Translations under genes and position numbers: made by a program
Notes under the pieces: model-generated
What the model was told of the DNA's origin: nothing
Database searches by the model: none
What the model saw: only the letters and a program-made list of their open reading frames with translations
Shown here: piece by piece, positions 20,431 to 60,199 of the stretch
Numbering within the stretch: the first letter of the stretch is position 1
Layout of the letters: each line of letters opens with the position of its first letter
DNA from: Chiloscyllium plagiosum
Taxonomy: Eukaryota
DNA: 64,000 nucleotides
Assembly: GCF_004010195.1 (NCBI RefSeq)
Contig: NC_057749.1
Location: 9,177,070-9,241,069 of the forward strand
Reading direction: 5' to 3'

Positions 20431-21180
20431 TTGTAATACTGATTAATTAACCCTCTACAGACATAACGGTACAGATTTTCTGATTGCCAGTCAGTCAATA
20501 CTGCAGTGTAGTCGGGAGTTGCATATGGGAATACTGCAGAATCTCCATCAAAGCAGCCACTACATCTTGAATCCTCCAGGAGTCTCCATTTAAATCAGAG
20601 ACTTGAGCTCAGCTGAAATTACTCAGGAAATGTTAAACTGTTGAATACATCGTCTAACTCCCAAGTATTCAACTGACCCCAAACTTACCTCTCACACCCC
20701 CACCCTCAAATATACCTCCCCCAAATCATTTAACCCACCAATCAATCCCTAAACCAAAATCCCCGGCCCCATTTTGCACCCTATCATCCCTACTCTCCCA
20801 GCACCCTAACCAGAGAAGAATTGTGAATCAGCAAGATTTGATGTATATTTTATACTGCCAGACCATTGATCTAGCATAGACAGCTCCTGAAATGTAAATC
20901 TGGGGGCAGAGACTAATACCCTGAAGAAATCTATCAAATTTTCTTTGGCGAAACCCATACATCTGGAATTGATGACAGAAATAGTGCAGAGAGCTCAAGA
21001 TAAAAGCAGCTGCACTCTGTTAAGTGCTCAAATTTAGGACATTTGAAGGTATGAAGTACATGTGTTAATTTATCCAAGCAAGCTCTGGAAACCTCTCATG
21101 CATCATCGGCACCAGTGAGCTGAGGGAACAATTACATCTGTAATCAGCTTAGTCCAACCAGCAGTTGTAGGCCCGTATTA

Positions 21181-21380
21181 GGCAAAAGTGAGGACTGCAG
21201 ATGATGGAAACCAGAGTTTAGATTAGAGTGGTGCTGGAAAAGCACAGCAGGTCAGGCAGCATCCGAGGAGCAGGAAAATCGGGGTATCGGGCAAAAGCCC
21301 TGTTTTGCCCGAAACATCTATTTTCCTACTCCTCGGCTGCTGCCTGACCTGCTGTGCTTTATCAACACCACTCTAATCTA
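21181..21380. mobile_element. Fold-back PLE terminus (two inverted pLTR arms)
   Basis: Arms ~21219-21298 and ~21303-21380 are reverse complements. The 3' tail is on one arm only. Degenerate TSD taggcccgtattagg / taggctgtattagg. Confidence 0.85.
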
Positions 21381-22167
21381 GGCTGTATTAGGTTGTATTT
21401 CACATGATCTGCAAATATCGCTAAGTGCTCTGGACAGATGCAGCTTGCCTTTGAGGATATTTAAGAGACCTGCAATCATGAAAATTAAATATTAAAATAT
21501 TTAATTTGAAAAGGCAAGTGATTAATGCTGTTGACACCAATTCAGAGAATACAATTGCACGGGGCTGACATTCAGTACGCGATTCTTCCAAACTTCAACA
21601 TTTTAAAGAGACTTCAGTTCACATTATAAAATTAATTACTTGGAAGCATACGGGTTTGCTAATTGGGAAATATATAAGTCATTTTTCACACAGATTAATT
21701 CAACAAACAGGCATCAAGTTAATGGTCAGTTAATCTTTTCCCTTCAGTTTCAACAACGTAGCACTTCTTCTGTACTATGCTGGGGTTTCAGGCTAGATTG
21801 CATACTCAAGTTCTGGAAAGGGACTTGAAGCAGCCATTTGGCTGCTGCCAGAAGCAGACTCCAAAAACTAATTATAATTATCTTACATGTGCCTGGTGAA
21901 TTTACCATCCAAACCACCAAAATAAAAGTTTAGAATTAAAATAAGTAGGACCTTAGCCAAGGCCTGATTACTTATATGGCAGAAAGTAAATAGATGCAAT
22001 CCCATGCAGTGAAGATCTCCAATTAGTGCATGCGCTTTGTGATAGGCTTCTCAAAAACTAAGTTCAAGGCTGGGCTGGTATTCAGTACCTTTACACACAC
22101 AGATTCATGTACCACAATAAATAAATAGGGCATAAAACAAAATTATACAAGCTTGATGATGACGCAC

Positions 22168-22385
22168 CTTTCACACTGGCCACTTGTTTGCTTTCTGTCT
22201 TGCTGAAGAGTTGCAGCTCAGTGGTGATACACTCCAGCATCTTCACAAAGTTAGGCAGGAACAGGATAACTTGTACCTGGTGGTTGGCAAGGTGGCGGCC
22301 ACAGCTGATCCCCTGAGCGCCCTTCACATGTGGTCCACACAACAAAGCAACGGTTGGACGCTGGTGAACATTCTTGGGGTTTAAC
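22168..22385 (-). CDS. EDC3: EDC3 penultimate coding exon (218 nt), YjeF-N domain
   Basis: Translates (R)LNPKNVHQRPTVALLCGPHVKGAQGISCGRHLANHQVQVILFLPNFVKMLECITTELQLFSKTESKQVASVK. Acceptor ttcaag|G, donor AAG|gtgcgt. Enters in phase 2 and exits in phase 1, consistent with both neighbours. Confidence 0.96.
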
Positions 22386-22488
22386 CTTGAATATAAATAC
22401 CTTGATTTAACTTTTAAGCAAAACCAGACTTGCAATCACATTAAAGTATTGCATGACATACAAAAAATGACAACTATCTGAAGACCAA

Positions 22489-22564: not shown

Positions 22565-24249
22565 TTGGGGGCAGGGGAGAAGAAACAGAGGGACTGCTAG
22601 TAGGCGAATAATCCAACAAGCTAAAGGTCATGACTGACAGGATGACGCATATCGATTCAATGGTAACCATCAAAATGGGGGAATGGAACAAATAACTGAT
22701 GTAAATGATGACAGGGATATGTTGAAATGCTGTTTTCCGGACAGGGGGAGAGAGACTGACTGAATTTATCAGACAGACTGGCCGATCTGAATGACCCCCT
22801 TTTGTGCTAAACTAACGTACACTTCTGTGTGTTTCAGGACCTCTACTTAACGAAGACCAAATATATCAAGGCCAAATGATTACAATGGATTCATGGAACT
22901 TGCACTGCAGCAGTAGTCCACTTTCCCCATGAAAGTCAGCAGCTTCAACCATTGCCATACAGGCAAGTGTTACTCTTTCAGAAAACACAAGGTTTACAGA
23001 GCTAATTCTGAAATTCACTGATGTATAAAAGATTGTATCTTTCGAATGTTCAAAATGTTCTAAATGTCAAAGCATTTGATAAACGTTCCACACATGTGCA
23101 TAGTCTCAATAAAGGATCCAATGTTACTGAGTAGATTGAGGGGGCCACCAATGATGTACAAATAGACAAAAACAAGGCAGCAAAAAAAAAGTCATTGTTA
23201 CTCCCAACCCCAAAAGTTAATCATAAACTGACAGGATCTCCCATTATTTGGAATTCTGATATGTTTGAGTCCCACACCCAATGAGGAAATTGCCCATTAA
23301 AACATCCTGCACCATATAAAACCATTTCCTTCGACCCAGTCCCAACAGGCAGCAAATCACAATTGGAAGAAATTAATATTTGCTAGTGCCAGCTCATGCC
23401 CTGCATTAAAAGAATTTGGAATATTAGTCCTGCCCCTTTTTCTTTTTTAAAACGTTTGACATCAGAATCAGCACACAAATCTGAGACTGTGCTGTTTTTG
23501 TACTGGGTTTGGTGAAGGTGATCAACTAACTTCAAAAATACAGCTCTCACGCAGTCTTTTTGTGTCCTTGTGACCGAAACCAAGAAGGATTGCATGCTTG
23601 GGACCAGCGTAATGAGCGTTAAAGCTAAGGATGGTTGTATACAGAATGCTCTGAACAGCTAGTGTGACAAGTATGTCACACACCACCAGGGACAATGACA
23701 GTATCTCATGTGGAAGCATAAACTAGAGATAGCATTAAGTGGAAAAAGTTGGCCAGAAAGAAACCAAATGCAGTCATGCCAACTGAACAAGGTACTTTAA
23801 AGTGGAAGTAAGGTAATCCTTCACTGAGGCATGGGCATCTGTAATGATCATTTTGAGGGTAGAAGGATTGAATTTATTTTTGGTGTTTGTAATTTCACAG
23901 CGTCAAAATGTTCTTAAAAACAAAATGGTTTGTGTATTTTGTTTTATCACGTGTAATAAACTTTGATATTCTTCTGATAAATGTACACTGGCAGCCTCTT
24001 ATATGTTCAGCGATCAACCAGTACAGTAACAAAATGGCAAAATTAAACTGTCGGTTGATTAAGTCAGGTTTCACTCTGGAATATGACTTGTCCAGTATTA
24101 CTATCAGCTGGGGTCACTATACAACCCTCAAGGTGATGGAGGGGTCATCAGCAAGTCACACTCAACAAATATCACTGCTGACGCTCAGGTTGGGCCCTGC
24201 CAAGACAACATTATAGCCTAGGTTCAAACTGCTCTTGACACAAAAGCCT

Positions 24250-26170
24250 TATTTAAACAGCATGAAACATCACAGAGCCCTAACAGTACAGAAGTCAATG
24301 GAAATAGGGGGAACTCTCTCTACTAGTTGGAATCACAGTTAGCACAAAGGAAGATCATTGTAGTCACTGGAGGTCAGTCATCTCAGCAGTAGTTCAAAGC
24401 AGCATCCTAAGCCCAAGCATCTTCAACTGCTTCATTGAACTTCCATCTGTTATAAGATCAGACATGGGGGGATTCACTGACAATTGCTTAATATTCAATA
24501 TCACCAGCAACTCTTCAGATACAAAAGCAATCCACATCCAAGTTCAACAAAATTATGACAATATCCAGGTTTGGGCTGACAAGTGGCAAGTAGGATTTAG
24601 GCCACACAAGAGCCAGACAATTATTGTAATTATTGTATCAAACAGGAAAATACGACTTCGGCCTTTGACATTGAACTACATTACAATAGCTGAATTGCCC
24701 CACTAACAGCATGCTGGGTGGGGGGGGAAGGGGGAGGAGAGAGAGAGAGAGAGCGCGAGCGCGAGAGAGCGCGAGCGCGAGAGAGAGAGAGCGCGAGAGA
24801 GAGAGAGCGCGAGAGAGAGAGAGCGCGAGAGCGCGAGAGCGAGAGAGCGCGAGAGCGCGAGAGCGCGAGAGAGAGAGAGCGCGAGAGAGAGAGAGCGCGA
24901 GAGAGAGAGAGCGCGAGAGAGAGAGAGCGCGAGAGAGAGAGAGCGCGAGAGAGAGAGAGCGCGAGAGAGAGAGAGCGCGAGAGAGAGAGAGCGCGAGAGA
25001 GAGAGAGCGCGAGAGAGAGAGAGCGCGAGAGAGAGAGAGCGCGAGAGAGAGAGAGCGCGAGAGAGAGAGAGCGCGAGAGAGAGAGAGCGCGAGAGAGAGA
25101 GAGCGCGAGAGAGAGAGAGCGCGAGAGAGAGAGAGCGCGAGAGAGAGAGAGCGCGAGAGAGAGAGAGCGCGAGAGAGAGAGAGCGCGAGAGAGAGAGAGC
25201 GCGAGAGAGAGAGAGCGCGAGAGAGAGAGAGCGCGAGAGAGAGAGAGCGCGAGAGAGAGAGAGCGCGAGAGAGAGAGAGCGCGAGAGAGAGAGAGCGCGA
25301 GAGAGAGAGAGCGCGAGAGAGAGAGAGCGCGAGAGAGAGAGAGCGCGAGAGAGAGAGAGCGCGAGAGAGAGAGAGCGCGAGAGAGAGCGCGAGAGAGGGA
25401 GAGCGCGAGAGAGAGAGCGCGAGAGAGAGAGCGCGAGAGAGAGAGCGCGAGAGAGCGCGAGAGAGCGCGAGAGAGCGCGAGAGAGCGCGAGAGCGCGAGA
25501 GCGAGAGCGCGCGAGAGCGAGAGGGACAGCGAGAGAGAGAGCGAGAGAGAGAGAGCGAGCGAGCGAGAGAGAGATAGAAGGAGGTTACATTGACCAGAAA
25601 CTGTATTAGACTAGCCATATAAGTACTTTGGCTACAAGAGCAAATCACGGGTTAGAAATTCTGGACTCACTCACCTCCTGATTCCTCGAAGACTGTCCAC
25701 CATCTACATGGCACAAATCAGATAAGTGATAGAATAGCCCCCCATTTGCCTGGATGAGTGCTTTGCCAAAACTCAAGGCATGTGACATCATCTAAAACAA
25801 AGCAGACAGCTTGACTGGCCTCCCACATTCATTTACTTCAGCAGACAATGGCAGCAGTGTGTACCATCCACAAGATGCACTACAATAACTCAAAACTCCT
25901 TCAACAGTACCGTCCAAACCTCAACCACCTATAATAGGGCAGCAGATACATGGGAACTCTTCCAGCTGCTAGATCCTGTCCACATCACACTCCATCTTGT
26001 CTTGGAAGTACATTGTTATTCTGGAACTCTCTTTAGAGAGAAGCTCTCTCTAATAACAGCACTGTGGATGTCTGCACACCACGTGGACTAAAGGAGTTCA
26101 CAAATGTTAGGTCACCATATCTTCTCAATGGAGAAGATAATGTTGGCCTAGATACCAATGCTCACATTAC
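24250..26170 (+). mobile_element. Old LINE (CR1/L2-related) RT and 3' end, split by a microsatellite
   Basis: MGGFTDNCLIF (FADD equivalent) and NIQVWADKWQVGFRPHK motifs. Confidence 0.7.
24737..25573. repeat. ~840 bp compound satellite, mostly (GCGCGAGAGAGAGA)n with a 14 bp unit
   Basis: Read directly. The core is homogeneous and the edges are degenerate. Confidence 0.98.
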
Positions 26171-28760: not shown

Positions 28761-31121
28761 CTCGATTTTGAAAGACTCTTAAAAATCTACCTGCTCCAGC
28801 AATAACTTTCAGGGAAGACAATCTGCTATCCGTACTTAGTCTGGCCTACGTGTGACTCCAGACCTACTGCAATGTGGTTTCAAATGCCCTTTGAAATGGC
28901 CAATCAAACCACTCAAGTCTTAACTAGGGGTAGATGGGGAATTCCAACCTTGTCAGCATTGCCCATGTTTTAAAAAGGATCCTGCACGACAATGTCTGCA
29001 AATATTCACGCTTCTGCAAAGTTTCTTCAAGTCGTGCCCATCAGTTCAAAACAATCCATTAACTGGTGTTCCAATTGTTACTTAATGCGAAGAAATCTTC
29101 TGAAATTGCAAATGGGCAAGATACCAAAATACAAAAAATACTTCACATCGGTCTCAAGCAAGACTCACTCATAACGCAAGGTGAAAAGAATCAAAGATAT
29201 GGTTGAGTATTAAGCTTACTTCAGTGCCAATTGAGCTGCATCTGATGTATTGAGGGCCATTGATTACTGGAGCACTTTGTGGTTTGCAAAATTAACTGGG
29301 CATGGTCAAGTCCAGAACCAATGGGCTCATCAGAATTCAAGCTTTATAAAAGCAGTTAGCCAACATTAGTTTCATCCAGGCATGTTACAATACAGTGAAA
29401 TGTAAGTACAATGAACTCCTGCCCAAATTTATCATTTGGGCAGATAATCAATGGGGACTAACCATTTCCACCGGTTTCATATATATGTGGGAAAAATAAA
29501 CGTGTGTGTAGCACCTCTACTTGCATTAACTGCACAATACAAGTATTTAAAAGTTGTTTGACGTTTGACATATCACTTGAAATTGCAACAGTTCCATGAA
29601 CAGCTGCATGCAATGAAACCAGGCATAGTTTTTTGGAATGCAGAAAAAAATGCTGATATAATTGTAGAACCGAGTGAGGCACTAGGGAATCCTGGCAATT
29701 TAAATTGAAGCCAAATGCAGCATAAGCTAAGTCGAGAATTGGAAATACTGGGGAGCAGATACAAACTGTTACACTTTTGATAGAACTTTCTTGTCGAAAC
29801 ATTTTTTCAAAGAAACTCCATGATATAAAAGGTAGAGTCTGGGATACATGCCTATAGTTCATAGCTGTAGAAATACACATGAACTACACCAGAAAAGCAG
29901 GAGAAAGAATGGATCACAGGACTTTTTTTTGGTGAGGTAGCTGGTGTGGAAGCAAGTCGCCAGTCAGCACCTTTGGCTGAACAGCAATTGTTTCACGGGT
30001 TGACGCAAGAGGAAATCTAATTCCAAAAAGGAATTACAGGGAATTAAATTGAAAAAAAACCCGCGCTGTTGGAATACATTACTGAAACATATCCAAAATG
30101 AAAATACTTTACAGAAATGGCCCACTGTGGAGCCTGCCACCCCCGTAATGATGTGGAGACCGCCAGCATAGTTTTCCGAAACCTCAGATTCAATGTTAAA
30201 TTTTATTGGTTATGTCAGCCCTTTGCAATGGATAAAAAGTGATGAGTTTCTAATTATGTTTCACTGTCATAAAGAGCATTCCTTGGGAATTTGCTGCACT
30301 AAATTTGAGAAATTTACAGAAAGGAATGCTTAATTCCCAAAACTAAACCTGACTTTTGTTTCCTTCTTACCTAAAACAGGAATGGAGGGAGGAATCATAC
30401 ACAATTGCTTTTAAGAAAACTAAATTTTACCAACACTCAAAACCTTTAAAAAGCTAACAGTTGCAACAGCATGCCACATTTTTGAATGACTGGATATCTC
30501 AGATATGACAGAAGGCACCTATTTCAAAAGTAAAATTCTAAGCTCATAACCGTACCTTTGTATTTCGTATGTAACTTCCACTTTAACTGAAGGGGCAAGA
30601 TATTAAGTGTGAAGGTAAAGTCACCATAGTACCAGAAGACCACAAGGCTGGTCTCCGATGAGAAGACAGAGTTTCACTGAAGAGCTTTCACACCCCAGGC
30701 AAAGGGTGAGGTTGAGAAGATGGGACCTTCAGGATAACTTCAGCATGTGAATTGAACTGCAAACACACAATCCAGTTAACTGAGCGAATCGACCTCTAGG
30801 AAGAAGGTATCAGGGTTGTGGAAAAGTCATTGATCTAGTAATCCAGAGACCCAGACTAATGGTCTGCGAACACCAATTCAAATCGCATCACGAGTGCTGG
30901 TAGAATTCAACTTCAAATAATAAAGAATTTGAATTGAAAGCTAGCATTAATAATGGCAACCATGGAATATCCAATTGTAAAATGCCATCTGGGTTTGCTA
31001 ATATCCTTCAGGGAAGGAAGTTGCCATCCTTACAAGATTTGGCCTAAATGTAACTCCAGATCCGCAGCAATGTGACTGGTTCCCAACCACCTCTGAATTG
31101 GCCAAGCAGGATACACTAAGT

Positions 31122-32490
31122 CAAAGAGTCACATACAGCATGGAAACAGGCCCTTCGGGCCAACTCACCCATACCGACCAGATTTTCCAAACTAATCTAG
31201 CCCCATTTGCCAGCACTTGACCCATATCTCTCCAAAACCTTCCTATTCATGTATCCATCCAGATGCCTTTTAAATGTTGCAAATGAGCCAGCCACCACCA
31301 CGTCCTCTGGCAGCACATTCCATACACCCACCACGCTATGTGAAAATGTTGTCCCTTAGGTCCCTTTTATATCTTTCCCCTCTCACCTTAAACTTTTGCC
31401 TTTTAGTTCTAGACTCCCCCACCCCAGGGAAAAGACTATGTCTATTTACCCTATCCATGCCCCTCATGATTGTATAAACCTCAGAGGTCACCTTTCAGCC
31501 TCAGACACTCCAGGGAAAACAGCCCCAGCCTCTTCCGATAACTTAAATCCTCCAACCCTGGCAACATCCTTGTAAATCTTTTCTGAACCCTTTCAAGTTT
31601 CACAACATCCTTCCAGTAGGATGGAGACCAGAACTACACATAATATTCCAAAAGTGGCCTAACTAATGTCCTGTACAGCCACAGTATGACCTCCCAACTC
31701 CTGTACTCAATACTCTGACCAATAAAGGAAAGCATGTCAAACACCACCTTCACTATCCTATTTACCTGCGACTCTACATTCAAGGAGCTATGAAACTGCA
31801 CTCCAAGGTCTCTTTGTTCAGCAACATTCCCCAGGACCTTAGCATTAAGTGTATAAGTCCTGCTAAGATTTGCTTTTCCAAAGTGCAGCACCTTGCATTT
31901 ATCTAAATTAAACTCCATCTGCCACGTCTCAGCCCATTGACCCATCTGATCAGGATCACATTGTAGTCTGACGTAACCTTCTTTAATGTCCACTGCACCC
32001 TCAATGTTGGTGTCATCTGCAAACTTACTAACTATACCTCTTATGTATACATTGAAATCATTTATATAAATAACAAAAAAATGGTGGACCTAGCACCAAT
32101 CCTTGTGGCACTCCACTGGTCACAGGCCTCCAGTCTGAAAAACAACCCTCCACTACCACCCTCTGTCTTCTATCTTTGAGCCAGTTCTGTATCCAAATGG
32201 CTAGTTCTCACTGTATTCCATGAGATCTACCTCGCTAACCAGTCTACCACAGGGAACCTTGTTGAAGGCTTTACTGAAGTCCATATACATTACATCCACT
32301 GCTCTGCCTCATCAATCCTCTCTGTTAGTTCTTCAAACAAATATCAAGCTTGTGAGACATGATTTCCCATGCACAAAGCCATGTTGACTATCACTAATCA
32401 GTCCTGGCCTTTCCAAATACATGTTCATGTCAGGATTCCCTCCAACAACTTGCCCACCACCGACTTGCTCACCGATCTATAGTTCCTTGG
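31122..32490 (-). mobile_element. CR1-clade LINE, 5' truncated
   Basis: VVGKLLEGIL, KFADDT and WQMEFNLDKCKVLHFG motifs plus 3' tail. Confidence 0.93.
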
Positions 32491-32781
32491 CTTGTCAGAG
32501 TGACACTCAATGCAAATAAGATGGAAAACAAACATTGATTTTGCCAGTGATCCTCTCGCCCCATGAAACAAGAAAAATCTTAGGATGCTCCCTTTTTGTG
32601 GCAAAGTATAAAAACACCATAAAAATTCAGTATGGCCTGAACACAAACTGATTGAAGTTCCATAGCCCAAAACATTATTCATTTGCCCAGTCAAAAAAAA
32701 AGAAGGTAGCATGGAATTGGGAATATAATTAAATTGATATGTCCTATTTACAAGTATCATGTGTTAGAAGTAATGATATTT

Positions 32782-33684
32782 TCACCACCTACAAGTGAAC
32801 CCCACCACCAGGAATATATTTCCCTCCCTGCCCGTATCCACTTTCCGCAAAGTCCATTCCCTCAGTGACTCTGTGGTCAGGTCCACACCCCCCAACAACC
32901 CGCCCTCCCCTCCTGGCACCTTGCCCTGCCACCTCAGGAATTGCAAAACCTGCACCCACACCTTCCCCGTCACCTCCATCAAAGGCCCCAAAGGAGCCTT
33001 CCATATCCATCAAAGTTTCACCTGCACTCCCACAAACGACATTTACTGCATCTGTTGCTCCCTATGCAGCCTCCTTTACACTGGGGAGACTGGATGCCTT
33101 CTCACAAAGCGCTTCAGGGAACATCTCCGGGACACCCTCACCAATCAACCTCACCACCCCATGGCAAATCATTTCAATTACACCTCCCACTCTGCCGAGG
33201 ACATGCAGGTTCTGGGCCTCCTCCGCTGCCACTCTCTCACCACCTAAAGCCTGGAGGAAGAATGCCTCATCTTCCACCTCGGTACCCTTCAACCCCAGGG
33301 CATCAATGTGGACTTCACCAGTTTCATCATTTCTCCTCCCTCCACCTTACCCCAGTTCCAAACTTCCAGTTCAGCACCATCCTCATGACCTGTCCCACCT
33401 GTCAAATCTTCCTTCCCACCTACCCACTTCACCCTCTTCTCCTACCTATCACCTTTACCCCTTCCTCCATTCACCTACTGCACTCTCAACTACCTTCTCC
33501 TCAGCCTCACCCCCACCCATTGAATGTTTCTACCCCCAAGGATCCCAGCCTCATTCCTGATGAAGGGCCCGCGCCCGTAACGTCGATTTTCCTGCTCTTC
33601 GGACGCTGCCTGACCTGCTGTGCTTTTCCAGCACCATTCTAATCTTGACTCTAATCTCCAACATCTGCAGTGCTCACTTTCCCC
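32782..33684 (+). mobile_element. PLE 3' part: GIY-YIG endonuclease, pLTR and tail
   Basis: CKTC...IYCICCSLCSLLYTGETGCLLTKRFREH is a PLE GIY-YIG domain. A premature stop follows. Hammerhead motif in the pLTR. Confidence 0.92.
33553..33588 (+). ncRNA. Minimal type I hammerhead motif, mutated (GUAA in place of GAAA)
   Basis: CTGATGA-a-gggc-ccgc-gccc-GTAAC-GTC. Confidence 0.65.
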
Positions 33685-35653
33685 TATGTAGTAGGGGTAG
33701 CTTTATGTCATTTTTAAAAATACTTGCAGTAAAGGCTATGAGCTTATTAAATACTCAAAACTATTCGCGCTTTGGAGATTAAAATCTCAGTGCACTAGCT
33801 GGAATTTTTATTTAAAATCTTTTACCCAAGGTCCGATTTCCTGCCATCCTACTAAATGCATTGATTCCTTAACAAGAAAGATGGAGGCACACTATCACAA
33901 TCATATACTCCTCCAGAATTCGATCTGGATCTGCAAATCTAGTCAATAATGTATCCGGGTACTGAACTGTGGAAGACGACATTATAGCAATCACAATCTT
34001 GTCCATAACCTATCAGAGTACATATCGAATCCCCTACCAATGCAGGCTGCAACTCTAACATCCCCGACACCTGTTCCACCTGAAAAGAGGAAGCAAATGT
34101 TCCTGATCTGATGGGCTCATCCCTCAGTTTTAAGTAGCTACAAGAGTGGGCAAGTTACAGTTTATTCATTCAACTGAACTTATAAGCAATAATCAATAAT
34201 ACTCAAGGCAGCTTTTGAAGAACTTTTTGAAGGTTATGCTTTGATGTGACAGCCAACCAAAACGATTAACTTCAAATAGCATGAATCCCCTTCAAGTCCC
34301 TGATGCTTTAATTTAATTTCTCCCTGGACATACTTTGCCATAGCAACTTGTACTTTCCAACAGTTCCGGTATTTGCAAAAGTAACCCAAGAGATGATAGT
34401 AGTCACTTAAAGAGCATTAAGCCTTCAGGGATCGAAACAGTCTGATGGCTCCTGATACACATACTTAAATACAACAAAAAATGTGTTGGTCAGTCAGGTG
34501 TATTTCTGTTGTTTGCCGCAGCCTGCTTGCACGCCACTGGAGAAATTCTGAACATGCAGCTCAAACTCAGCACATACCAATTACATAGCAACAAAACGAA
34601 AAGAATGAGGAAACTGCTACAGTTTATTTAAGTCTAAAATACACCGTTTGTAAACTATGGGTTGCCAAGAAACAGTGATACTTAACACGCAACGAATTGG
34701 CACAGATGCTTTCCCTTCAGAAAAAGGAATAATATTTTTGAAGGCTCCTGTCACACAAATGTAGCCCACCACAAGATAGAGATCTGTAAAGTGGAGACTA
34801 CGTGGTTATAATCAATTACATTAAAACAATGACACTTGGCACTTTGTGACAAAGTGGACCTTCTATCAGCTCTGGAACCAGAGCTTTCATGCTCTAGAGA
34901 AACAGAAAACTTCAGGAATCAATCTGATATGCTACAAATTCAGAAATAAAATATATGCCCCTTATATCCAACTAAGCAGGACATGCTCAGTTACCTCCAA
35001 ATTTAAAAATAATTTACAAATAATTTATAATCTGGAGAACATAAGTGTGCAAATCATAATCCTGAGAGCACTTGTGGGTGAACTACCATGGCTGAATTTC
35101 AGAGCTCAGGTACTTGTATTGGTTTGAAAGCAATGACCATTTTGTTTTAACTTTCCCTGCTCATTAAGAACAGCCCAATCAGAAAAATTAACAATGAACC
35201 TTAAGTGCAAACATAGTTAATGCTGGCAACTGTAATAATCTTACACATCACAATACATAATATTAAATTCTGCAACAAAATGAATTAGTGGTGCCAACAA
35301 GTATAATATATCATTTTATTATGGACACAGCCTCTTTGCAGGTTCTAAACAATGGATACTGGCCAGATATTAAACAAAGCAAATCGCGCCACATCTAAAC
35401 TTGTGTGCCATAAGAAACACTTAGTAAAACAATACATCGGCTGTTGAATAGATCAAAGCTTCCCACTGCACTTGGCAAAAATCTTGATATGTGGTACAAT
35501 GCAACCTAGCAATCGCTTTGAAACATGACAAGACTGCACCGGAGCAACAAACAACAAAAGAAAATTAGTTGAAAACATACATTTCCTGAAGCATATATAG
35601 AATCATAGAGATGTACAGCATGGAATCCTAAGAAGGAGGAAGAACGATATTAG

Positions 35654-44950: not shown

Positions 44951-46210
44951 AGCAAAAGTCCTTGCAAGGATGTTTGTCCCACATGGTAAACAGAAACAAC
45001 TGTCTCCACTGTCCCGTCAAAAATCTCACAACCCTGAATTGGGAATAGATCAGTCTCCCTTCATAATCATTGGGTCTGGAAATTTCCACTAACAGCACCT
45101 ACACCATTTGGACTAAAGTACTTCAAAGTGATTTGTGACTATCTTCTTGACTTTAAATAGGGTGGAAACATTTTGTCACTGTCACTGATACCCACAACAC
45201 GAGATGAAATGAAGGTAAGAGATGACAGATCTATAGATCTTTCTCTCTGTAGTACAGAGCATAAATAGCACAAATATAACAAATCAACATTTGCTAAAAA
45301 TAAATGCAATCTGATTCAGCTCATTTCTAAAAGGCCTTAAAGAAAAATTGAACAACAATTGCAAAGATATAACTGTTAGATATTGAATATGCAGCTCACT
45401 TCAACTTGACAACTTAAATGTACACAAGTTTAAATCATTTAAGCAGAAAGGTAATAGTGAAGAATATAAACCAGGATTTCATTGGATTTTGCTACAATTC
45501 ACTTTAAAAAGGAACACATTCCAAAAATTACTTTGAAGTTGGGACAGATCTTGTACATAGAAAAACTTTTGGTAGACTAAATGCAGACAATGTCGAAAGG
45601 TGGAGGCAAAAATCAATTTTCAAACATTCACACCAAAAAAAACGATCCCTTCCCTTAAAAAAAAACAGGAGTAAATAGTTTAAATAATGTCAAAATCAAT
45701 ACCCACTGAGGTTTTGTAGACTTTGACAATTATTTAGTATTGGTTGTATTTCTCAGAATAGACAGTTCCTGAGTTCAATACAAATTATTGAACAGTTGAT
45801 TTATGATAATCTAGCTGATGGTAATGCTCGATAATTGGCTCTCAGATAATCCAATATTTTTATTTCTTTTAGTTTAAAATGAGGTCAGTCATGTTGACAA
45901 GAGGCTGCCAATGTACTTTAAGCAGAAGAATGCGAAAGCTTATTATACAAAATCAAAACACAAATTAGTATGAACCAAAGAGCGTGGTGCTGGAAAAACA
46001 CAGCCAGTCAGGCAGCATCCGAGGAGCAGGAGAGTCAACGTTTCGGGCATTACCCCTTCAGCAGGGATGAGGCATGTGGGCCAAGGGGGCTGAGAGATAA
46101 ATGGGAGGGGGCGGGGCTGGGGCTGGGGAAGGCAGCTGGGAATGCGATTGGTAGATGGGGGTGAAGGTGATAGGTCAGAAGGGAGGGTGGAACACCTAGG
46201 TGGGAAGGAA

Positions 46211-46805: not shown

Positions 46806-47471
46806 GAAGGAAGTTGTGACAGGTAGGACCATTCAAGACGGTGGTGCCAAGTTGGGAAGTTGGGACTGGGATAAGGTGGTGGAGTGGAAATGGGGAAAGT
46901 GATGAAATCCACATTGATCCCATATGGTTGCAAGGTCCCAAGGCAGAGATGAGGCGTTCTTCTTCCAGGTGTCGAGTGGTAAGGGTTTGATGAGGGAGGC
47001 AGACCAGGACCTGCCTGTCGTGGCAAGGTGGGAGGGGGGAGATGAAGCGTTCCGTTACTGGGCAGTGGGGTTGATTGGTGGTGTCCCAGAGACGTTCTCT
47101 GAAATGATCCATAAGTTGGCATCCTGTCTCCCCAATGTTGAGGAGACCACATCAGGTTCAATGGATGCAGATGATGACATGTGGAAGTACAGGTAAATTT
47201 CTCTTGTATGTGGAAAAATCCATTGAAGCTTTGGACGGAGGTGAGGGGGGAGGTGTGCACACAGATTTTGCAATTGCTAAGGTGGCAGGGGAGGGTGGGT
47301 TGATGGAGGGCATGGATCTGACAAGGGAGTTACTGAGGGAATGGTCTCTCCAAAACACAGATAAGAGTGGGGAAGGAAATACATCCCCACCTTCATCTAC
47401 CTATCGCATTCCCAGCTACCTTCCCCTCAGCCTCACCCCGTCCAATTGATCTCTCAGCTCCCTTCGCCCAC

Positions 47472-47507
47472 ATTCCTAATGAAGGGCTTATGCCCGAAAC
47501 GTCGATT
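47472..47507 (+). ncRNA. Minimal hammerhead motif, mutated (CUAAUGA)
   Basis: CTAATGA-a-gggc-ttat-gccc-GAAAC-GTC. Confidence 0.65.
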
Positions 47508-48699
47508 CTCTTGCTCTTCAGATGTTGCCTGACTGCTGTGCTTTTCCAGCACCACACTCTGACTCTGATCTCCAACATCTGCAGTCCTCAGTTTCTCCAT
47601 AAACTAATATGAAACAAACTCATTTCAAAAATCATGAAGATTCAACCTTTTTACCACTTACCTCCACTGTTCCCTCCCAAATAGTCTGAGAGACAATACC
47701 TCAGTGAAGAATCAGCCCACAGCAATGCTCCTTGCTCTGCTAGCATAGCCGCAAATTATTTCCTTTTCAGCAGATTTCTTTGCATTCACTTGATGGCATA
47801 TTCCTCTACTGTTTCTCCCTAAGCCTTTAGGTAAGCTTCAGATCACTATTGCTACATGACATGGGATCCTAAAACTTGTGTCTTTGATTAAATTGTGGGA
47901 CGGCTTCTGCTTACATCTCCAAAGTTTTCTACTTCTGAAGTTTACTTCTGGGCAACTCAGGACTTCTCCCTAGCCTTGTCCTGTCTATTTTTGGAAACTA
48001 TTATGAACCATGCTGATCATCAGCCTCTTCCCTTGAAATGAAGCCTTTTCTGGTCTCTTAATCAAGTCTGCCAACACCATAGTAACATTATCCCACGTGT
48101 CTGGCTAATAACTCAGTCAAAAATTAAATTTTCTTTGGAAATGCTGTTTTAATTCATTTTTCAAAAAAAGTCAGTCAAGCCTTCACAGAAGGGATAACAT
48201 TTTCTGCCATTTCAGGACCCAAATTCCCCCCCAAAAAAATATTGTGAGCCTTCATCATAGGTTAAATAAGACATCAGAAATTTATTACTTGTTTTGAAAT
48301 TCAGGTGAAAATAATTTTTTGAAAAACAAAACTGAATATTGTTCTAATTTAATAAAAATTCACAATGTGTACGTTTGACTATAAATTACATTTTAATGCA
48401 ATGAGTGGCATGAGGACATATCTTGGAAAAGATTATTATACAACACATTGGTGTCTCTGATGCTGTCACATTGCAATTGCACAGAGTTTGTAACAGGAGT
48501 AACACACAAAAAGTAACACCAACATAGGTAGTGATGTTATCACAGTCTGAACTTCTGTCAGAACAAGTGTCACATGCTACAACTGAGAAAACAAAAGAGT
48601 ATATAGAAATTATTTCTCCTTCAAAAAATATGATTAGCATAATCATGATTCTCCTTATTTCTTCAAAGTATTCGAGAGATAGACAAAAAAAACTAAATG

Positions 48700-50657: not shown

Positions 50658-51725
50658 TGAGGAAGTCAATCCGGGTGTTCCCCAACAGGAAACCCTGGAT
50701 GAATCAGGACATACAGAACCTGCTAAAAACCAGGTGTGAGGCCTTCAGACCAGGAGCCCCACTCAAATATAAAGGAATCCAAGTGTGACCTTCGCAGAGC
50801 CATTAAGACAGCCAAGGAACGATACCGATCCAAAATAGGGACCCAGACAGACAGCTGGCAACTATGGCAAGGACTGAATGACATCAAGTTCAAAAAAGAG
50901 ACAGTGCAAGATAGCAGATGACAAATCCTTCCCATATCGTCTCAATGCTTTGAGCAGAATTTCGGCGGAGAGGTAACACCTATTCCAACAAGTCCTGACG
51001 AACCTATCCCAACAGTCACTGCATCAGAGGTCAGATCAGTTTTCTTTCGTGTGAATCCAAGGAAAGCAATGGGACCAGACGGAGTACCCCAGGCCATGCA
51101 CTCAAAGCATGCGCAGATCAACTGGCAGAGGTCTTTTCAGACATCTTCAATCTCTCCCTGCAGCAGGCCACTGTCCCCAGGTAAAAACAATGACTGCAGA
51201 TGCTGGAAACCAGGCTTTGGATTAGTGGTGCTGGAAGAGCACAGCAGTTCAGGCAGCATCCAAGGAGCAGCAAATGCAGCCTGAACTGCTGTGCTCTTCC
51301 AGCACCACTAATCCAAAGGCCACTGTCCCTGCCCGTTTCAAGAGGGCCAACATCCCTGTGCCTAAGACAACTCATGCAGCATGTCTTAATGACTACTGCC
51401 CAGTGGCCCTAACTTCAGTGGTCATGAGGTTCTTTGAAAGGCTGGTCATGGCATTAATCAACTCTGACCTCCCCGCTACTGTTGACCCATTCCAATTTGC
51501 CTATCGGACCAACAGATTCACATCAATGACACATCACTTGCCCTTCACTCCTCCCTAGAACATCTTGACACCAAGAATAGCTACGTAAGAATTCTACTCA
51601 TTGACTATACTTCAGCCTTCAACACTATTATCCCCTCGAGACTGATTACTAAAGTTAGTGATCTTGGACGAAGCCCCACTCTCTGCAACCTGGATCCTCA
51701 GTTTCCTGACCCACAGGCCACAGAG
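50658..51725 (+). mobile_element. Rex1/Babar-clade LINE ORF2 fragment
   Basis: [58 protein letters not shown] and [11 protein letters not shown] motifs. Confidence 0.85.
51178..51316. mobile_element. Very short fold-back PLE terminus inserted in the Rex1 element
   Basis: Inverted arms and an exact 13 bp TSD aggccactgtccc (51165-51177 and 51317-51329). Confidence 0.9.
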
Positions 51726-51742: not shown

Positions 51743-52705
51743 TTAGAGTCAGATGTACAGCACAGATACAGACCTTTTGGTCCAACCCGTCCATGCCGAC
51801 CAGATATCCAACCCAATCTAATCCCATCTGCCAGCACCAGGCCCATATCCCTCCATACCTTTCCTCTTCATATATCCATCCAGATGCTTTTTAAATGCTG
51901 TAATTGTACCAGTCTCCACCACTTCCTCTGGCAGCTCATCCCATACACATACCACCCTCTGTGTAAAAAAGTTGTCCCTTAGGTCTCTTTTATATCTTTC
52001 CCCTCTCACCCTAAACCTATGCCCTCTAGTTCTGGACTCCCCCACTCCAGGGAAAAGACTTTGCCTATTTAACCTATTCATGCCCCTCATAATTTTGTAA
52101 ACTTCTATAAGGTCACCGCTCAGCGTTCGACGCTCCAGGGAAAACAGCCCCAGCCTGTTCAGCCTCTCCCTATAGCTCAAATCCTCCATCCCTGGCAACA
52201 TCCTTGTCAATCTTTTCTGAACCCTTTCAAGTTTCACAACATCCTTCCGATAGGAAAGAAACCAGAATTGCACGCAATATTGCAACAGTGGCTTAACCAA
52301 TGTCCTGTACAGCCGCAACATGACCTCCCAATTCCTGTGCTCAATGCTCTGACCAATAAACGAAAGCATACCAAACACCACCTTCACTGTTCTATTTACC
52401 TGCAAATCCACTTTCAAGGAGCTACGAACCTGCACTCCTCGGTCTCTTTGTTCAGCAACACTCTCTACGACCTTACCATTAAGTGTATAAGTCCTGCTAA
52501 GATTTGCTTTCCCAAAATGCAGCATCTCGCATTTATCCGAATTAAACTCCATCCGTCACTTCACGGTCCATTGGCCCATCTGATCAAGATCCCATTGTAA
52601 CCAGAGGTAACCTTCTTCACTGTCCATTACACCTGCAATTTTTGTCTCATCTGGAAACTTACAAGCTATACCTCTTATACTCACATCCAAATCATTTATA
52701 TAAAC
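51743..52705 (-). mobile_element. Young CR1-clade LINE, 5' truncated
   Basis: Uninterrupted 244 aa ORF2 C-terminus (51818-52552) plus 3' tail. Confidence 0.95.
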
Positions 52706-56339: not shown

Positions 56340-57597
56340 AGCAGCATATGTCAGGTACAGACAGGATAGATCGAGTGAATCCTTAGAAGAGTATAAAGAA
56401 AGTAGGAGTATACTTAAAAGGGAAATCAGGAGGGCAAAACAGGGACATGAGATAGCTTTGGCAAATAGAATTAAGGAGAATCCAAAGGGTTTTTACAAAT
56501 ATATTAAGGATAAAAGGGTAACTAGGGAGAGAATAGGACCCTTAAAGATCAGCAAGGCAGCCTTTGTATGGAGCCACAGAAAATGGGGGAGATACTAAAT
56601 GAATATTTTGCATCAGTATTTACTGTGGAAAAGGATATGGAAGATATAGACTGTAGGGCAATAGATGGTGACGATCTTGCAAAATGTCCAGATTACAGAG
56701 GAGGAAGTGCTGGAGGTCTTGAAATGGTTTAAGGTGGATACATTCCCAGCACCTGATCAGGTGTACCCGAGAACTCTGTGAGAAGCTAGAGAAGTGATTG
56801 CTGGGCCTCTTGCTGAGATATTTGTATCATCAATAGTCACTGGTGAGGTGCCGGAAGACTAGAGGTTTGCTAACGTGGTTCTACTGTTTAAGAAGNNNNN
56901 NNNNNNNNNNNNNNNNNNNNNNNNNNNNNNNNNNNNNNNNNNNNNNNNNNNNNNNNNAACATGGCTTTGTGCATGGGAAATCATGTCTCACAAACTTGAT
57001 TGAGTTTTTTTGAAGTAACAAACAAGATTGATGAGGACAGAGCAGTAGATATGATCTATATGAATTTCAGTGAGGCGTTCGACAAGGTTCCCCATGGGAG
57101 ACTGATTAGCAAGCTTAGATGTCATGGAATACAGGGAGAACTAGCCATTTGGATACAGAACTGGCTCAAAGGTAGAAGACAGAGGGTGGTGGTGGAGGGT
57201 TGTTTTTCAGACTGGAGACCTCTCACCAGTGGAGTGCCACAAGGATCGGTATTGGGCCCTCTACTTTTTGTCATTTACATAAATGATTTGGATGCGAGCA
57301 TGAGGTACAGTTAGTAAGTTTGCAGATGACACCAAAATTGGAGGTGTAGTGGACAGGGAAGAGGGTTACCTCAGATTACAACAGGATCTGAACCAGATGG
57401 GCCAATGGGCTGAGAAGTGGCAGATGGAGTTTAATTCAGATAAATGCGAGATGCTGCCTTTTGGGAAAGCAAATCTTAGCAGGATTTATACACTTAATGG
57501 TAAGGTCCTAGGGAATGTTGCTGAACAAAGACCTTGGAGTGCAGGCTCATAGCTCCTTGTTTCCACGCTCTACATCTCTATGACTCTATGATTCTAA
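56340..57597 (+). mobile_element. CR1-clade LINE ORF2 fragment spanning an assembly gap
   Basis: [34 protein letters not shown] and KFADDTK motifs. An internal deletion joins it to the tail near 57558. Confidence 0.95.
56896..56957. other. Assembly gap (62 N)
   Basis: Run of N. Confidence 1.
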
Positions 57598-59301
57598 GTA
57601 AAAGAGGAACTCTCACCAGAGTGAACTCTATAGTAATGACAGCCCAGCCTTTGAGGTCAGCAGTGATGACAGTTGCTTTGCTGCTGCCCACCAAAAACCA
57701 TTAACTTTACATAGCTTCTAATTCTTCACCTAAAAGTAATTCCCAGTAAATCAATAGTAGCCACTGAAATAACTACGTTCTTAATGTTAGTCAAGCGCTA
57801 AATTTGGAAAGATAAAAAAAGCTGTATAGTTGCATACTTCACAGTACACAAATCACTGTTGTTAGCCAAAAAAAGTGAATGAAAAATTGCATGTGGTATT
57901 GGTATGGCAAAGTTTCAGATTTCATATCACATTTTACCAAAGTCCCCATGACTATACTTATATAGGTACAAAGGGCAAATGAGCAAGTGAAGAGTTTAGC
58001 AAGATTTTTTTTTCAAAAGCATCAAGGTAACTGAGAACTTTAATCCATGGATTAAAACAAATGCTGGAAATTCAAGTTCAACATTTCATTTTCTCCAATT
58101 GAATTTTGTTAAGAGTGGAACAATGTGATTAAATACAGTACCTGAAGATGTAGGTTAGTGATAGAAAAGTAAAGATATACATGACTAACTTTCACTAGCA
58201 CACTTTCACTAAAAATAAAATTAGCTTCTTTGGAATACCAGCTTCTCAATGAATTTCCACCGGCCACTATATTAAGCCAGCACTCCATTACTATCTCTTG
58301 CCTTCCTCTATAGAAGACTTCAAGTTTGAAGTAATCATCTAACTAAAGTCCCCGTACCAGAATTTCAAAATGCCGATTAGAAAAAAACTGTTTTGATGAG
58401 CCATGCTGCACTGTCCATATGCAAAAGTGAAGTTGTAATAACCACTTGACTGAACACTGCAGCTTTCAAAATTTAAACTATGCAAGCTGAAAATTGTAAA
58501 CAAGCCAGTCACTTTCAACATCATTTATCAAATGTTGGGCTCAGCAACCAGTGAAAGCTCACTCACTCAGACATTTAGAGCGAAGTTTCCCTCTTGATGT
58601 TTTCAACAATACGCAAGTCTGCAGTTCGGCTGTTGTTTCTCAGCACATCTTGGTGTCAGCTCATTTATTTACTTGCCCTAGTTTGGTCAACTTCATTTAA
58701 TAAGCTTTAATGCTAGTTTGACTGGCTTAATTTTCAATGTTATCTGTAATATATAAAGGTTAATTTTCAAAAATATAATGATGGTAGCCATCCCCAAGCT
58801 TTTCACCTCATCTTTCAAATTAGGAAACTTTCATTTTCCCCACACGTAACTGATGTCACTCTTGCACAAACAAATGGATTCAATCCTTTGAAATCAGTTT
58901 AAGCAAAACGGCATTGCAATATTTAATATTACATGGCACAAATATCAATGCAACACAAAACAAATGATATTCTTAATAAGGAATAAAAGAATTTTTGGCT
59001 TTCATCAACACCTTCTATTGACAAGACAACTTAGAAACTAACGTACACCTTTCTTTCCTGTGGGATAAGCCAGTTGTGGTTTTAAGTCAGCATTCTTGCA
59101 GTTCTCATTATAAATGCAAGACTATAAACTTTGGCACCAGTTCTCGCTTTTCAGCAATATTAAAGATAAAATGGGGTTGGAATGAATTGACAAATACATG
59201 ATAACGAGGCAAAAACAAAGATTGCAAATGCTGGAAACCAGATACTGGATTAGTGGTGCTGGAAGAGCACAGCAGTTCAGGCAGCATCCAAGGAGCAGCA
59301 A

Positions 59302-59335
59302 AATCGACGTTTCGGGCAAAAGCCCTTCATCAGCC
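59302..59335 (-). ncRNA. Minimal type I hammerhead motif, intact core, stem I disrupted
   Basis: Same core on the minus strand (59306-59333). The 5' strand of stem I is replaced by the fold-back junction. Confidence 0.6.
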
Positions 59336-59371
59336 CTTCCTGATGAAGGGCTTTTGCCCGAAACGTCGATT
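59336..59371 (+). ncRNA. Minimal type I hammerhead motif, intact core
   Basis: CTGATGA-a-gggc-tttt-gccc-GAAAC-GTC. Predicted cleavage after 59367. Confidence 0.75.
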
Positions 59372-60199
59372 TCGCTGCTCCTTGGATGCTGCCTGAACTG
59401 CTGTGCTCTTCCAGCACCACTAATCCAGAATCCAAATACATGATAACGACTTGCTGAATATGTTGTTAGCACATGATAGGCATTTTTAATTAAAAAGAGT
59501 CAGAGGGGTCTTTTGTTTAAGCGGTATTTTCTCTACCTCTGATTCAGAAAGTCCAGACTTAAGTTGCAGCTATTCCAGTGGTGTGGCTTGTCTGAGCAGC
59601 ACCATTAAAAACAACAGTGATAGTGTGGCCAATTAATTAAGCATCCAACTGAGGACAGTACTTTTAACGGAAGACTATGTCCAAATCTACAATTGTTTGG
59701 AAGCCTTGTGGTTTGAAAGCACATGTTTTATGAGCAAGGAGATCATGAGCTTGACTTTCAGCAACACCACTATTGTTTCTAGGGTCTCCTGTGGTGCAGT
59801 GGTAATATGGAACAAAAGATCAGAGTTCAAGTACTATCCAGGATGTGATGGGCAGAGTTATCCCACAACACATCCAGGCAGCTTAACCAGATAGATTGAA
59901 AAAAGAAATTCAAAGAGGGTCAGGTGCTCATGTGGCGCAGTGATAACACCGTCAATGCTTCATTTTAAGAGTGTCATGTAATGCAGTGGCAGTGACCCTA
60001 CTTCTGGGTTGGAAGGTCCAGATTCAAGATTGGACCAAGTTCTCAAAAATGTGATCAGAATAGTTTTGTGGTCTTTTTGACTGACGTGGACACAAGGGCC
60101 TTTTTCTCAGTGCTGTAGATCTCTGTGCCTAACATTCTCCCCTTTCCTCTCCCTCAACAGGTTGATGAAACATTATTGTAAAGAGTATCAATTTGGATA

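Follow-up and report, generated by a model that had tools for sequence, protein, structure and literature searches.

Head-to-head end modules of Penelope-like elements in Chiloscyllium plagiosum and a hot spot of cDNA ends at a predicted minimal hammerhead motif

The window, i.e. the whole stretch of 64,000 nucleotides of Chiloscyllium plagiosum DNA that was analysed, contains four insertions (c1 to c4), each of which is a head-to-head double copy of the 3' end module of a Penelope-like element (PLE; Table 1). Positions within the module are counted from the C of CUGAUGA (position 0), which places the scissile bond between +27 and +28. All four inverted insertions are present where the initial annotation had located them and, as it had stated, they carry target-site duplications (TSDs) of 12-17 bp and a tail on a single arm, which is 34-36 nt long and confined to one arm in 4/4 cases. 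The inner ends (tail arm/other arm) are +7/+12 in c1, approximately 0 to +14/+44 in c2, +31/+46 in c3 and 0/-3 in c4. The end of the c1 tail arm, annotated in stem II at about 21300, indeed falls inside stem II, at +7, and the fold-back of c4, placed just 5' of CUGAUGA at 59334, is where it was expected, as both arms end just 5' of this box. The c2 end given as about 43862 is within the alignment uncertainty: a strict alignment puts it at +14 (43867), and a lenient one, running through the decayed CUGAUGA box, at -1 (43855). The c3 end, described as 1-2 nt from the GUC cleavage site, is near this site, but lies 3 nt 3' of the scissile bond. The proposed division into two subfamilies was a simplification, since c3 and c4 are close to each other (92% identity over 86 nt), but c1 and c2 are each about 82-85% identical to the other copies. 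The arms of c2 are separated by approximately 170-180 nt of unrelated sequence, absent from the earlier description; its open frame contains a motif with a possible resemblance to a LINE endonuclease. Nested insertion of two separate copies was ruled out, because a single TSD encloses both arms.

Table 1. Features of the PLE insertions and other PLE copies in the window
Feature	Position	Strand	Remarks
c1, whole insertion	21170-21392		TSD 12-13 nt
c1, left TSD	21170-21182	none	recurs with one change at 21381-21392
c1, tail-bearing arm, antisense	21183-21301	-	tail 21183-21218; inner end +7, stem II
c1, tail-less arm, sense	21303-21380	+	begins at +12, loop II
c1, right TSD	21381-21392	none
Longer PLE copy, 3' part (natural reference)	32777-33690	+	endonuclease frame remnant, CT-rich untranslated stretch, predicted min-HHR 33557-33584, tailed end ~33686
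c2, whole insertion	43629-43990		12 nt TSD; tail on right arm
c2, left TSD	43629-43640	none	12 nt, one change relative to 43979-43990
c2, tail-less arm, antisense	43641-43687	-	inner end ~+44
c2, filler between arms	43688-43854	+	no relation to PLE; open frame
c2, tail-bearing arm, sense	43855-43977	+	inner end -1 (lenient) to +14 (strict)
c2, right TSD	43979-43990	none
Long-armed fifth inverted pair, tail-less arm	45979-46163	-	partner 47388-47598
Long-armed fifth inverted pair, tail-bearing arm	47388-47598	+	~1.2 kb between arms
c3, whole insertion	51165-51329		13 nt TSD
c3, left TSD	51165-51177	none	13 nt; within older LINE-like RT reading frame
c3, tail-bearing arm, antisense	51179-51274	-	inner end +31, 3 nt 3' of scissile bond; without ribozyme core
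c3, tail-less arm, sense	51274-51316	+	begins at ~+46; overlaps other arm by 1 nt
c3, right TSD	51317-51329	none
c4, whole insertion	59191-59449		17 nt TSD
c4, left TSD	59191-59207	none	17 nt, exact
c4, tail-bearing arm, antisense	59208-59333	-	full predicted min-HHR core; inner end 0
c4, filler CCC at fold-back point	59334-59336	none	three bases
c4, tail-less arm, sense	59337-59432	+	full predicted min-HHR core (59340-59367); begins at -3
c4, right TSD	59433-59449	none

The motif of the c4 type is a predicted minimal hammerhead ribozyme (min-HHR), identified by eye against the published description (PMC4209133). The core features, namely CUGAUGA ... GAAA ... UH, a bulged base after A9, G10.1-C11.1, no helix III and a palindromic 15.2-16.2, were read in both arms of c4, at 33557-33584 and in 27 aligned relatives. 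Among the four insertions the whole core is kept only in c4, the 3' part only in c1 and c2, and none of it in c3; in the c2 tail arm the 3' strand of stem II, GAAAC and GTC are intact. Helix I, as judged by inspection (-1 to -4 against +28 to +31: C-G, U-A, U.U, A-U), has at best three of four pairs, and most short copies lack part or all of its 5' strand, because they start at -7 to +3. The min-HHRs of metazoan PLEs (Cervera and de la Pena 2014, PMC4209133) likewise have CUGAUGA, one bulged base before stem II, G10.1-C11.1, a stem II of 4 bp, GAAA, no helix III, a palindromic C15.2-G16.2 and a GUC site; their helix I has 4-5 pairs. The insertions studied here depart from them in that, of the four, c4 alone has the whole core and that Rfam hammerhead models gave no match in the 64 kb window, either at the gathering score or at E<=10. 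The same work describes pairs of min-HHRs that lie on opposite strands at a spacing of 100-700 bp, as well as numerous solitary motifs derived from truncated PLEs. On c1, c3 and c4, Rfam gave miRNA-like hits, in which perfect hairpins were matched by chance.

In the reading frame of the longer PLE copy (32777-33247), the match to GIY-YIG is weak (E 0.005; 17.6 bits against a cut-off of 22.6), and the translation of the frame shows IY-C..C-..Y.GE; no RT match was obtained in 31002-32868. Long PLE copies elsewhere in the genome consist of N past the untranslated part. None of 216 arms is a 5' pLTR running into an ORF, and 0/216 continue 3' into arm-shared sequence, as direct pLTRs in partial tandem around an ORF would, two local duplications excepted; the copies are solitary end modules, not full PLE units. 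In the EN+ PLE family, the RT carries a fused GIY-YIG endonuclease, in which cysteines separate GIY from YIG, and canonical units, as described by Craig et al. 2021 (PMC8557442) and in parts of Arkhipova et al. 2013 (PMC3846280), have an inverted pLTR beside a direct pLTR and an optional tail of 30-40 bp at one end. Sections of the latter paper also report, for rotifer PLEs, an inverted pLTR, a tail on one inverted pLTR and palindromes at the inverted junction. The copies studied here resemble these units in their head-to-head inverted pLTRs, the tail of about 35 nt on one arm, the TSDs, the short overlaps or palindromes at the inverted junction, the heavy 5' truncation and the hammerhead motif of the pLTR. 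They differ in having no ORF or direct pLTR between the arms, in consisting of two stubs of only about 45-130 nt, in copy numbers in the thousands and in a very short pLTR unit, the start of which is the hammerhead. As genomic objects, the four insertions are unexceptional remnants of an element class that is already known.

The four hairpins belong to a class with thousands of relatives in the 3.56 Gb genome, the first-look candidates for full-length hairpin relatives numbering 2687, 847 and 6584 (40 of each were scored). In total 98 hairpins were examined, from the window, 84 biased loci and 32 short pieces and bystanders. Exactly one tail is present in 95/98 and, likewise in 95/98, one arm ends near +123 to +127 and the other near +76 to +92; flanking direct repeats of 12-19 nt were found in 89/98. 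In the bystander and window hairpins, which were not selected for structure, one tail is present in 9/10 (binomial P 0.011 against independent choice of start sites). The joints show a 1-12 nt overlap in 33 of the 98 hairpins, are blunt in 8 and contain 1-5 nt of filler in 31. In c1-like hairpins, decayed CpG sites interrupt the strict alignment and produce false ends at +16 and +22; the exact end values of these hairpins were not used.

The abundance of full-length relatives might indicate a MITE-like or SINE-like family amplified, as DNA or via RNA, from a few hairpin master copies, and some junctions do recur: 0/CCC/-3, the c4 type, in 6/27 hairpins with the window copy included, and +9/+51 with a GCC overlap in 4/25. 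Nevertheless, 24 junction types were counted in 26 hairpins, 21 in 25 and 27 in 29, i.e. almost all are distinct, even though these samples were biased toward the junction of the query. The recurrent junctions sit on different arm variants and have different TSDs, and flanks and TSDs vary from copy to copy. A MITE would have symmetric terminal inverted repeats, a TSD of fixed length and a shared internal sequence, whereas here the single tail makes the outer ends asymmetric, the TSD varies from 12 to 19 nt and the centre is variable; moreover, three arm variants are common to long and short copies. Amplification from master copies is thus very improbable. The four insertions are independent events, as the initial annotation had argued from their different junctions: their TSDs and junctions differ, and the junction types of the relatives are nearly all distinct.

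The positions of cDNA ends were determined in 40 tail-anchored arms, all of one young subfamily, that were sampled without regard to junction. Fifteen of them end at -7 to +11, five at +25 to +31, three further 3' and six between -17 and -132, while 11 run on or are censored. The ends at -7 to +11, an interval which was chosen after the data were seen, and at +25 to +31 amount to approximately seven times the background rate (rate ratio 7.2). Over the hammerhead zone as a whole (-7 to +31) there are 21 arm ends against 3.6 expected, a 5.9-fold enrichment relative to elsewhere (Poisson P 3e-10), so that the clustering of fold-back points at the hammerhead, first noticed in four copies, is upheld genome-wide. 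The main peak (15/40 arms) coincides with the motif's 5' edge, approximately 30 nt 5' of the scissile bond; the minor peak at +25 to +31 contains 5/40 arms against 0.74 expected (P 0.001, with the interval picked post hoc). Templates with upstream sequence also exist, because, besides the six arms ending at -17 to -132, at least 7 of the 40 extend past -200. Older subfamilies were placed only for hairpins and TSD-bearing copies, and older single bystander copies entered the counts only if a TSD fixed their end; in these bystanders strict alignments stop near -4 by construction, because their upstream parts differ from every natural reference.

Simple copies, which are not folded back, end at the same place. 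Among those with a TSD score of at least 8, a value reached by 2/285 random flank pairs, 8/11 end at -7 to +11 (spread -5 to +9) and two at +29 and +31. Independent reads and contigs were also examined. The summed contig depth on a long natural copy climbs approximately 7-10 fold from positions 225-238 to 253-266. The best supported point of upstream divergence is position 247 (= -4), with 31 and 43 contigs in two runs, and the diverging contigs show low agreement of sequence before it; raw reads contain opposite-strand joints at 242/254 and 246/253. In one single-cell poly-A library no pile of RNA starts or ends was seen on the element, and its reads come from both strands about equally.

The spread of junctions might also have arisen later, if full palindromes reaching about -9 were formed first and then suffered deletions at their unstable centre. 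In the c4-like set no arm passes -9 and in many cases one side extends to -8 or -9, and slippage or end joining would account for the 1-6 nt overlaps seen at many junctions. However, simple copies, which are free of palindromes, are spread in the same way, asymmetric pairs such as +11/+50 and +33/-5 would need one-sided deletions of 40-55 nt, and the hot spot itself would be left unexplained. We consider this origin of the junctions highly unlikely.

The initial annotation had proposed the ribozyme as the cause of the hairpins: a folded or self-cleaved hammerhead would halt the RT, and the stalled enzyme would switch template. The enrichment across the hammerhead zone is in line with this, and the minor peak fits run-off on an RNA cut between +27 and +28, as do the two TSD-bearing simple copies ending at +29 and +31 and the window copy c3, ending at +31. 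An enzyme arriving from the 3' end, however, would have crossed the motif before it came to the main peak. As this peak is approximately 30 nt 5' of the scissile bond, its ends cannot be produced by cleavage, and if structure blocked the RT, the block should be on the 3' side, where the enzyme arrives first. The module has no unusual predicted stability (z -0.9 and -1.7), and the fold-back share is no higher inside the hot spot (6/15) than outside it (7/14; Fisher P 0.72). In addition, the ribozyme is dispensable for insertion in vitro, and the lizard data contain no RNA ends at the cut (PMC11167929). Among the arm-end peaks, only the minor one fits templates cut at the ribozyme site, and the claim that the ribozyme triggers the fold-back is not supported; we regard it as unlikely. 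Since simple copies share the pile-up, the fold-back share is equal and the peak is displaced 5' of the cut, the fold-back cluster indicates where the short pLTR unit has its 5' boundary.

The more probable explanation is that each site represents one PLE insertion that left two inverted pLTR stubs, with the fold-back point being where short cDNAs end. The pLTR module consists of the predicted minimal hammerhead and approximately 60-100 nt leading to two reverse-transcription start sites. After a staggered cut of the target both strands may prime reverse transcription or, alternatively, one cDNA may jump onto the other or snap back on it; snap-back and the use of two templates of one source are not separated by the arm sequences, because arms of the same hairpin exceed arms of different hairpins in identity by only 1-2.3 points. 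One arm would carry the tail because it starts at the distal start site, the other starting at the proximal one, and the short cDNAs would be joined at their 3' ends with an overlap of 0-3 nt or some filler bases. The cDNAs of the module, with a second inverted arm or without one, end preferentially at -7 to +11 in this genome. Helix I and the core have their 5' edge at this position, which is also the 5' boundary of the short unit. The most likely cause, in which our confidence is a little less than even, is that the template RNA itself begins there, either from a start site inside the pLTR or by run-off after internal initiation on the start-site copy that is 5'-proximal; a smaller number of templates may begin at the ribozyme cut (+28). 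An RT stop passed by half of the cDNAs would fit the picture of the ends equally well. In Drosophila, the pLTR holds an internal LINE-like promoter and start site, as described in part of PMC2377424. A look-alike of a pol III A box, seen by eye on the antisense strand, was rejected, as neither the B box nor the spacing agrees.

The purified PLE protein cuts and extends both target strands, its RT starts at two internal sites, the interval between which is the tail, and the ribozyme is not needed by it in vitro (PMC11167929). The module proposed here is similar in that two adjacent start sites define the tail, both strands would be cut and extended, the hammerhead lies approximately 60-100 nt 5' of the start sites, and a short RNA, roughly from the ribozyme to the start sites, would suffice as template. 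That study, published in 2024, reported neither genomic positions of cDNA 5' ends nor inverted products. It found the choice of start site to be equal between the strands, in contrast to the one tail in 95/98 genomic hairpins, and so simple two-strand priming does not explain the one-tail rule.

A bolder reading, which we find doubtful, takes the genomic 5' ends as a fossil record of template RNAs, most of them beginning at the 5' edge of helix I (about -4) and a minority, about one arm in eight, at the scissile bond. Transcripts would then start in the conserved, initiator-like YYATTCC, with the minimal hammerhead at the very 5' end of the RNA. If true, self-cleavage by a vertebrate min-HHR would have left its first in vivo footprint in this minority, and the ribozyme would help to set or handle the template's 5' end in retrotransposition, a role comparable to that of the HDV-like ribozymes of R2 and L1Tc, as outlined in part of PMC6765202. 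Under this reading, the strictness of the one-tail rule would point to an asymmetric, coordinated use of the two RT start sites by a dimeric enzyme on the two target strands. PLE integration is still poorly understood, and the sole biochemical study was unable to give the hammerhead a role. A literature search, which covered papers without their supplements, found none that mapped PLE fold-back points or 5' ends against the hammerhead. The thousands of young end stubs are a natural record of cDNA starts and stops, in which the ends of cDNAs accumulate at the ribozyme's 5' edge and less so at the cut site, the accumulation is independent of fold-back, and fold-backs nearly always combine a tailed and a tail-less start; these are concrete, testable constraints on the mechanism of PLE integration.

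A further mechanism that yields inverted copies is the twin priming of L1, which Ostertag and Kazazian reportedly described in 2001 as inversion with 5' truncation. In twin priming, one RNA is primed internally and at its poly-A, so that the 5' part of the element comes out inverted and the 3' part direct; unlike in the stubs found here, no outward-facing pair of the same 3' end arises. What both have in common is a second cDNA primed by the second target strand, which for the stubs is the proposed route, a join at microhomology and an inverted segment enclosed in one TSD.

Eleven arms of one repeat were found in the window, in a genome of 3.56 Gb, by a similarity search with the arms of four reported hairpin insertions (c1-c4). 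An arm is one copy of the 3' end module (pLTR) of a Penelope-like element (PLE), and two arms standing head to head make a hairpin, or fold-back. Eight of the eleven arms form the four reported pairs, and the remaining three are single 3' ends in that search. Sequence reading bore out the initial annotation in that each of c1-c4 lies between direct repeats of target DNA, 12-17 nt long, and one of its arms, never both, is extended at the outer end by 34-36 nt (the tail). Positions were read from natural long copies used as rulers, with no consensus built, position 0 being the C of CUGAUGA and the scissile bond lying between +27 and +28. Tail-less arms stop at about +76..+92 and tailed arms at about +123..+127. 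Among c1-c4, the whole ribozyme core is kept by c4 only, and c3 is without any core. The same element is also present as a fifth inverted pair, whose long arms stand about 1.2 kb apart; their inverted repeat is matched over about 185 nt and extends some 100 nt beyond the 5' side of the hammerhead, and the tail is again confined to one arm.

Features of the window, with the inner ends of the hairpin arms
Feature	Position	Strand	Tail arm	Other arm
Open frame with YjeF_N match	16948-17520	-
Hairpin c1	21170-21392		+7	+12
Probable purine-rich repeat	24001-26000
Overlapping open frames in it	24638-25648	both
Frame upstream of long copy	32777-33247
Single 3' end	33557-33697	+
Hairpin c2	43629-43990		+14 (strict) or -1 (lenient)	+44
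Open frame in c2 filler	43688-43854
Single 3' end	45981-46065	-
Fifth pair, first arm	45979-46163	-
Fifth pair, second arm	47388-47598	+
Single 3' end	47473-47598	+
LINE-like frame hosting c3	50922-51558	+
Hairpin c3	51165-51329		+31	+46
Second LINE-like frame	51818-52555	-
Run of 62 N	56896-56957
Hairpin c4	59191-59449		0	-3

In the sequence shared by the arms, CUGAUGA and a single additional base precede stem II (4 bp, closed by a loop of 4 nt), which is followed by GAAA, C-G and UC. Judged by these features, the motif is the helix-III-less minimal hammerhead of PLEs, because the bulged base after A9, G10.1-C11.1 and the palindromic 15.2-16.2 agree with the description of that ribozyme, known from Penelope-like elements with those core features (PMC4209133), although no hammerhead model of Rfam matched, even at E<=10. 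The frame upstream of the longer copy at 33557 has a weak GIY-YIG match, with cysteines between the GIY-like and YIG-like motifs, and is compatible with the 3' end of a PLE ORF; a reverse transcriptase (RT) match looked for upstream of this copy was not obtained. The long copies of loci L102, L110, L115 and L120 give way to N, as gapped or withheld sequence, some way upstream of the hammerhead, the distance differing between copies. The insertions c1-c4 are of a known kind, solitary inverted PLE end modules with the known minimal hammerhead, and Cervera and de la Pena already saw pairs of this ribozyme 100-700 bp apart on opposite strands (PMC4209133).

The position of arm 5' ends was determined by a junction-neutral search of the genome with a 65 nt query limited to the tail plus the outermost 30 nt of an arm. 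This gave 394 candidates; 40 full-length places were scored and all 40 tail-bearing arms analysed. Fifteen arms ended at -7..+11, five at +25..+31, three further 3' (+16, +39, +51), six at -17 to -132, and eleven beyond -200 or into N. The main peak, -7..+11, a window set post hoc, has 15 ends where 2.1 are expected, 7.2 times the background when rates are taken per arm and nucleotide (P 6e-9), and the whole hammerhead zone -7..+31, the prior of the initial annotation, was enriched in the same 40 arms (21 against 3.6). A third preferred end point, +44..+51, is used chiefly by tail-less arms, and read depth also steps up there.

The proposal that ribozyme cleavage or structure stops the RT and triggers the fold-back was not upheld. 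The main peak is made up of six fold-backs and nine simple copies, and the 14 ends elsewhere of seven and seven (Fisher P 0.72). A target-site duplication (TSD) score >=8, reached by 2 of 285 random flank pairs, marks 11 simple copies: eight of them have their end at -5..+9, two at +29 and +31, and one at -45. Since simple copies share the peak and the fold-back share is unchanged, the hot spot belongs to the cDNA or its template and does not depend on folding back. In the main-text literature searched, no report was found that the 5' ends of simple and folded copies alike concentrate at the 5' edge of the motif and, in a smaller peak, at the cleavage site.

Ribozyme cleavage was rejected as the source of the main peak, the cut sitting about 30 nt further 3'. 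An RT-blocking fold is disfavoured: the block would be expected on the 3' side of the motif, and the predicted folding stability of the end module is ordinary. The preferred reading is that many templates would begin at -7..+11. Drosophila PLE pLTRs have an internal promoter with the start site inside the pLTR (PMC2377424). Were initiation internal in this way, an RT setting out from whichever of its start sites is closest to the RNA 5' end would run off the template some 90-130 nt later. Just before CUGAUGA, five bases (given as YYATTCC) are conserved among the natural copies compared; as they also form the 5' strand of helix I, this conservation is not decisive for a template start. The minor peak at +25..+31 consists of five arms only and is compatible with templates that the ribozyme has cut.

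Two contig sets and one raw-read run were aligned to a long natural copy. At the 5' edge of the motif, summed contig depth climbs by a factor of about 7-10, which may be partly due to other subfamilies sharing the conserved core alone. The best supported upstream divergence of contigs is at position 247 of the long copy (-4; 31 and 43 contigs), and the preceding sequences show low agreement. Opposite-strand joints occur in raw reads at 242/254 and 246/253, thus hairpin centres there are not assembly artefacts. The reads, from one poly-A single-cell library, fall on both strands in about equal number, and neither their starts nor their ends accumulate at any point.

Full-length relatives of the hairpins are very many (2687, 847 and 6584 first-look candidates, 40 being scored per search). 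Despite sampling biased toward junctions resembling the query's, distinct junction types numbered 24 among 26 hairpins, 21 among 25 and 27 among 29, and flanks and TSDs differed in every relative. Two junctions recur, both on differing arm variants: 0/CCC/-3 in 6 of 27 hairpins, c4 included, and +9/+51, joined through an overlapping GCC, in 4 of 25. Different centres, flanks and TSDs, and recurrent junctions on different arm variants, therefore indicate that every insertion makes its own hairpin, in line with the independent events for which the initial annotation argued. Long and short copies carry the same three arm variants, which makes the stubs by-products of the same sources and not a separate lineage. 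In the first junction (L002, L004, L007, L014, L015 and window 59334-59336), an arm that stops at 0 is linked through three C (G when read from the opposite strand) to a partner that stops at -2/-3; the three C could be untemplated additions at the template end or a small slippage duplication. In the second (L039, L044, L046, L055, nearly L121), +9 comes from the tail arm and +51 from the other. Locus L032 has two family hairpins adjoining within 370 nt (2543-2908), and L020 and L032 each have a local duplication spanning one arm and 150 nt of flank.

Exactly one tail was present in 95 of 98 hairpins (from the window, fetched loci, short pieces and bystanders), and 89 had a TSD of 12-19 nt. 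Among hairpins not chosen by structure, 9 of 10 joined a tailed to a tail-less arm (P 0.011 against independent choice), and single copies, unlike this near-obligatory pairing, use both ends. This rule was not found as a quantitative statement in the same literature; among the hallmarks of PLE insertion described in PMC3846280 and PMC8557442 are inverted pLTRs in head-to-head order, palindromes at their inverted junction, and a tail that one of the two carries. The purified PLE protein of a lizard cuts both strands of the target, extends both and begins reverse transcription at two adjacent internal sites, the interval between which is the tail; a short RNA, from about the ribozyme to the start sites, is sufficient, and ribozyme activity is dispensable (PMC11167929). 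Two-sided priming on a short module would leave two 3' ends outward and, with the cDNA 3' ends joined centrally, produce hairpins such as those found here. More than one joining route is likely, because the 98 junctions include 1-12 nt overlaps (33), blunt joints (8) and 1-5 nt fillers (31), and some are shaped exactly as snap-back on a 3 bp stem predicts, e.g. -3/+5 with a GAA overlap.

The arms of c2 are separated by about 170-180 nt of foreign sequence, with one frame open throughout and a motif that we take to resemble a LINE endonuclease domain. In locus L099, the hammerhead edge likewise runs on into LINE-like coding sequence, and both cases suggest jumps onto other retroelement RNAs. 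The insertion c3 lies in a LINE-like reverse-transcriptase frame that resumes after it; the second LINE-like frame, just downstream on the opposite strand, had no Pfam match at E<=0.01. Elsewhere in the window, the segment with GC 0.52 and AT skew 0.42, in which long open frames overlap, is probably a low-complexity repeat rich in purines. The frame matching YjeF_N, at E 6.5e-06 and above the Pfam cut-off, probably represents a host-gene exon.
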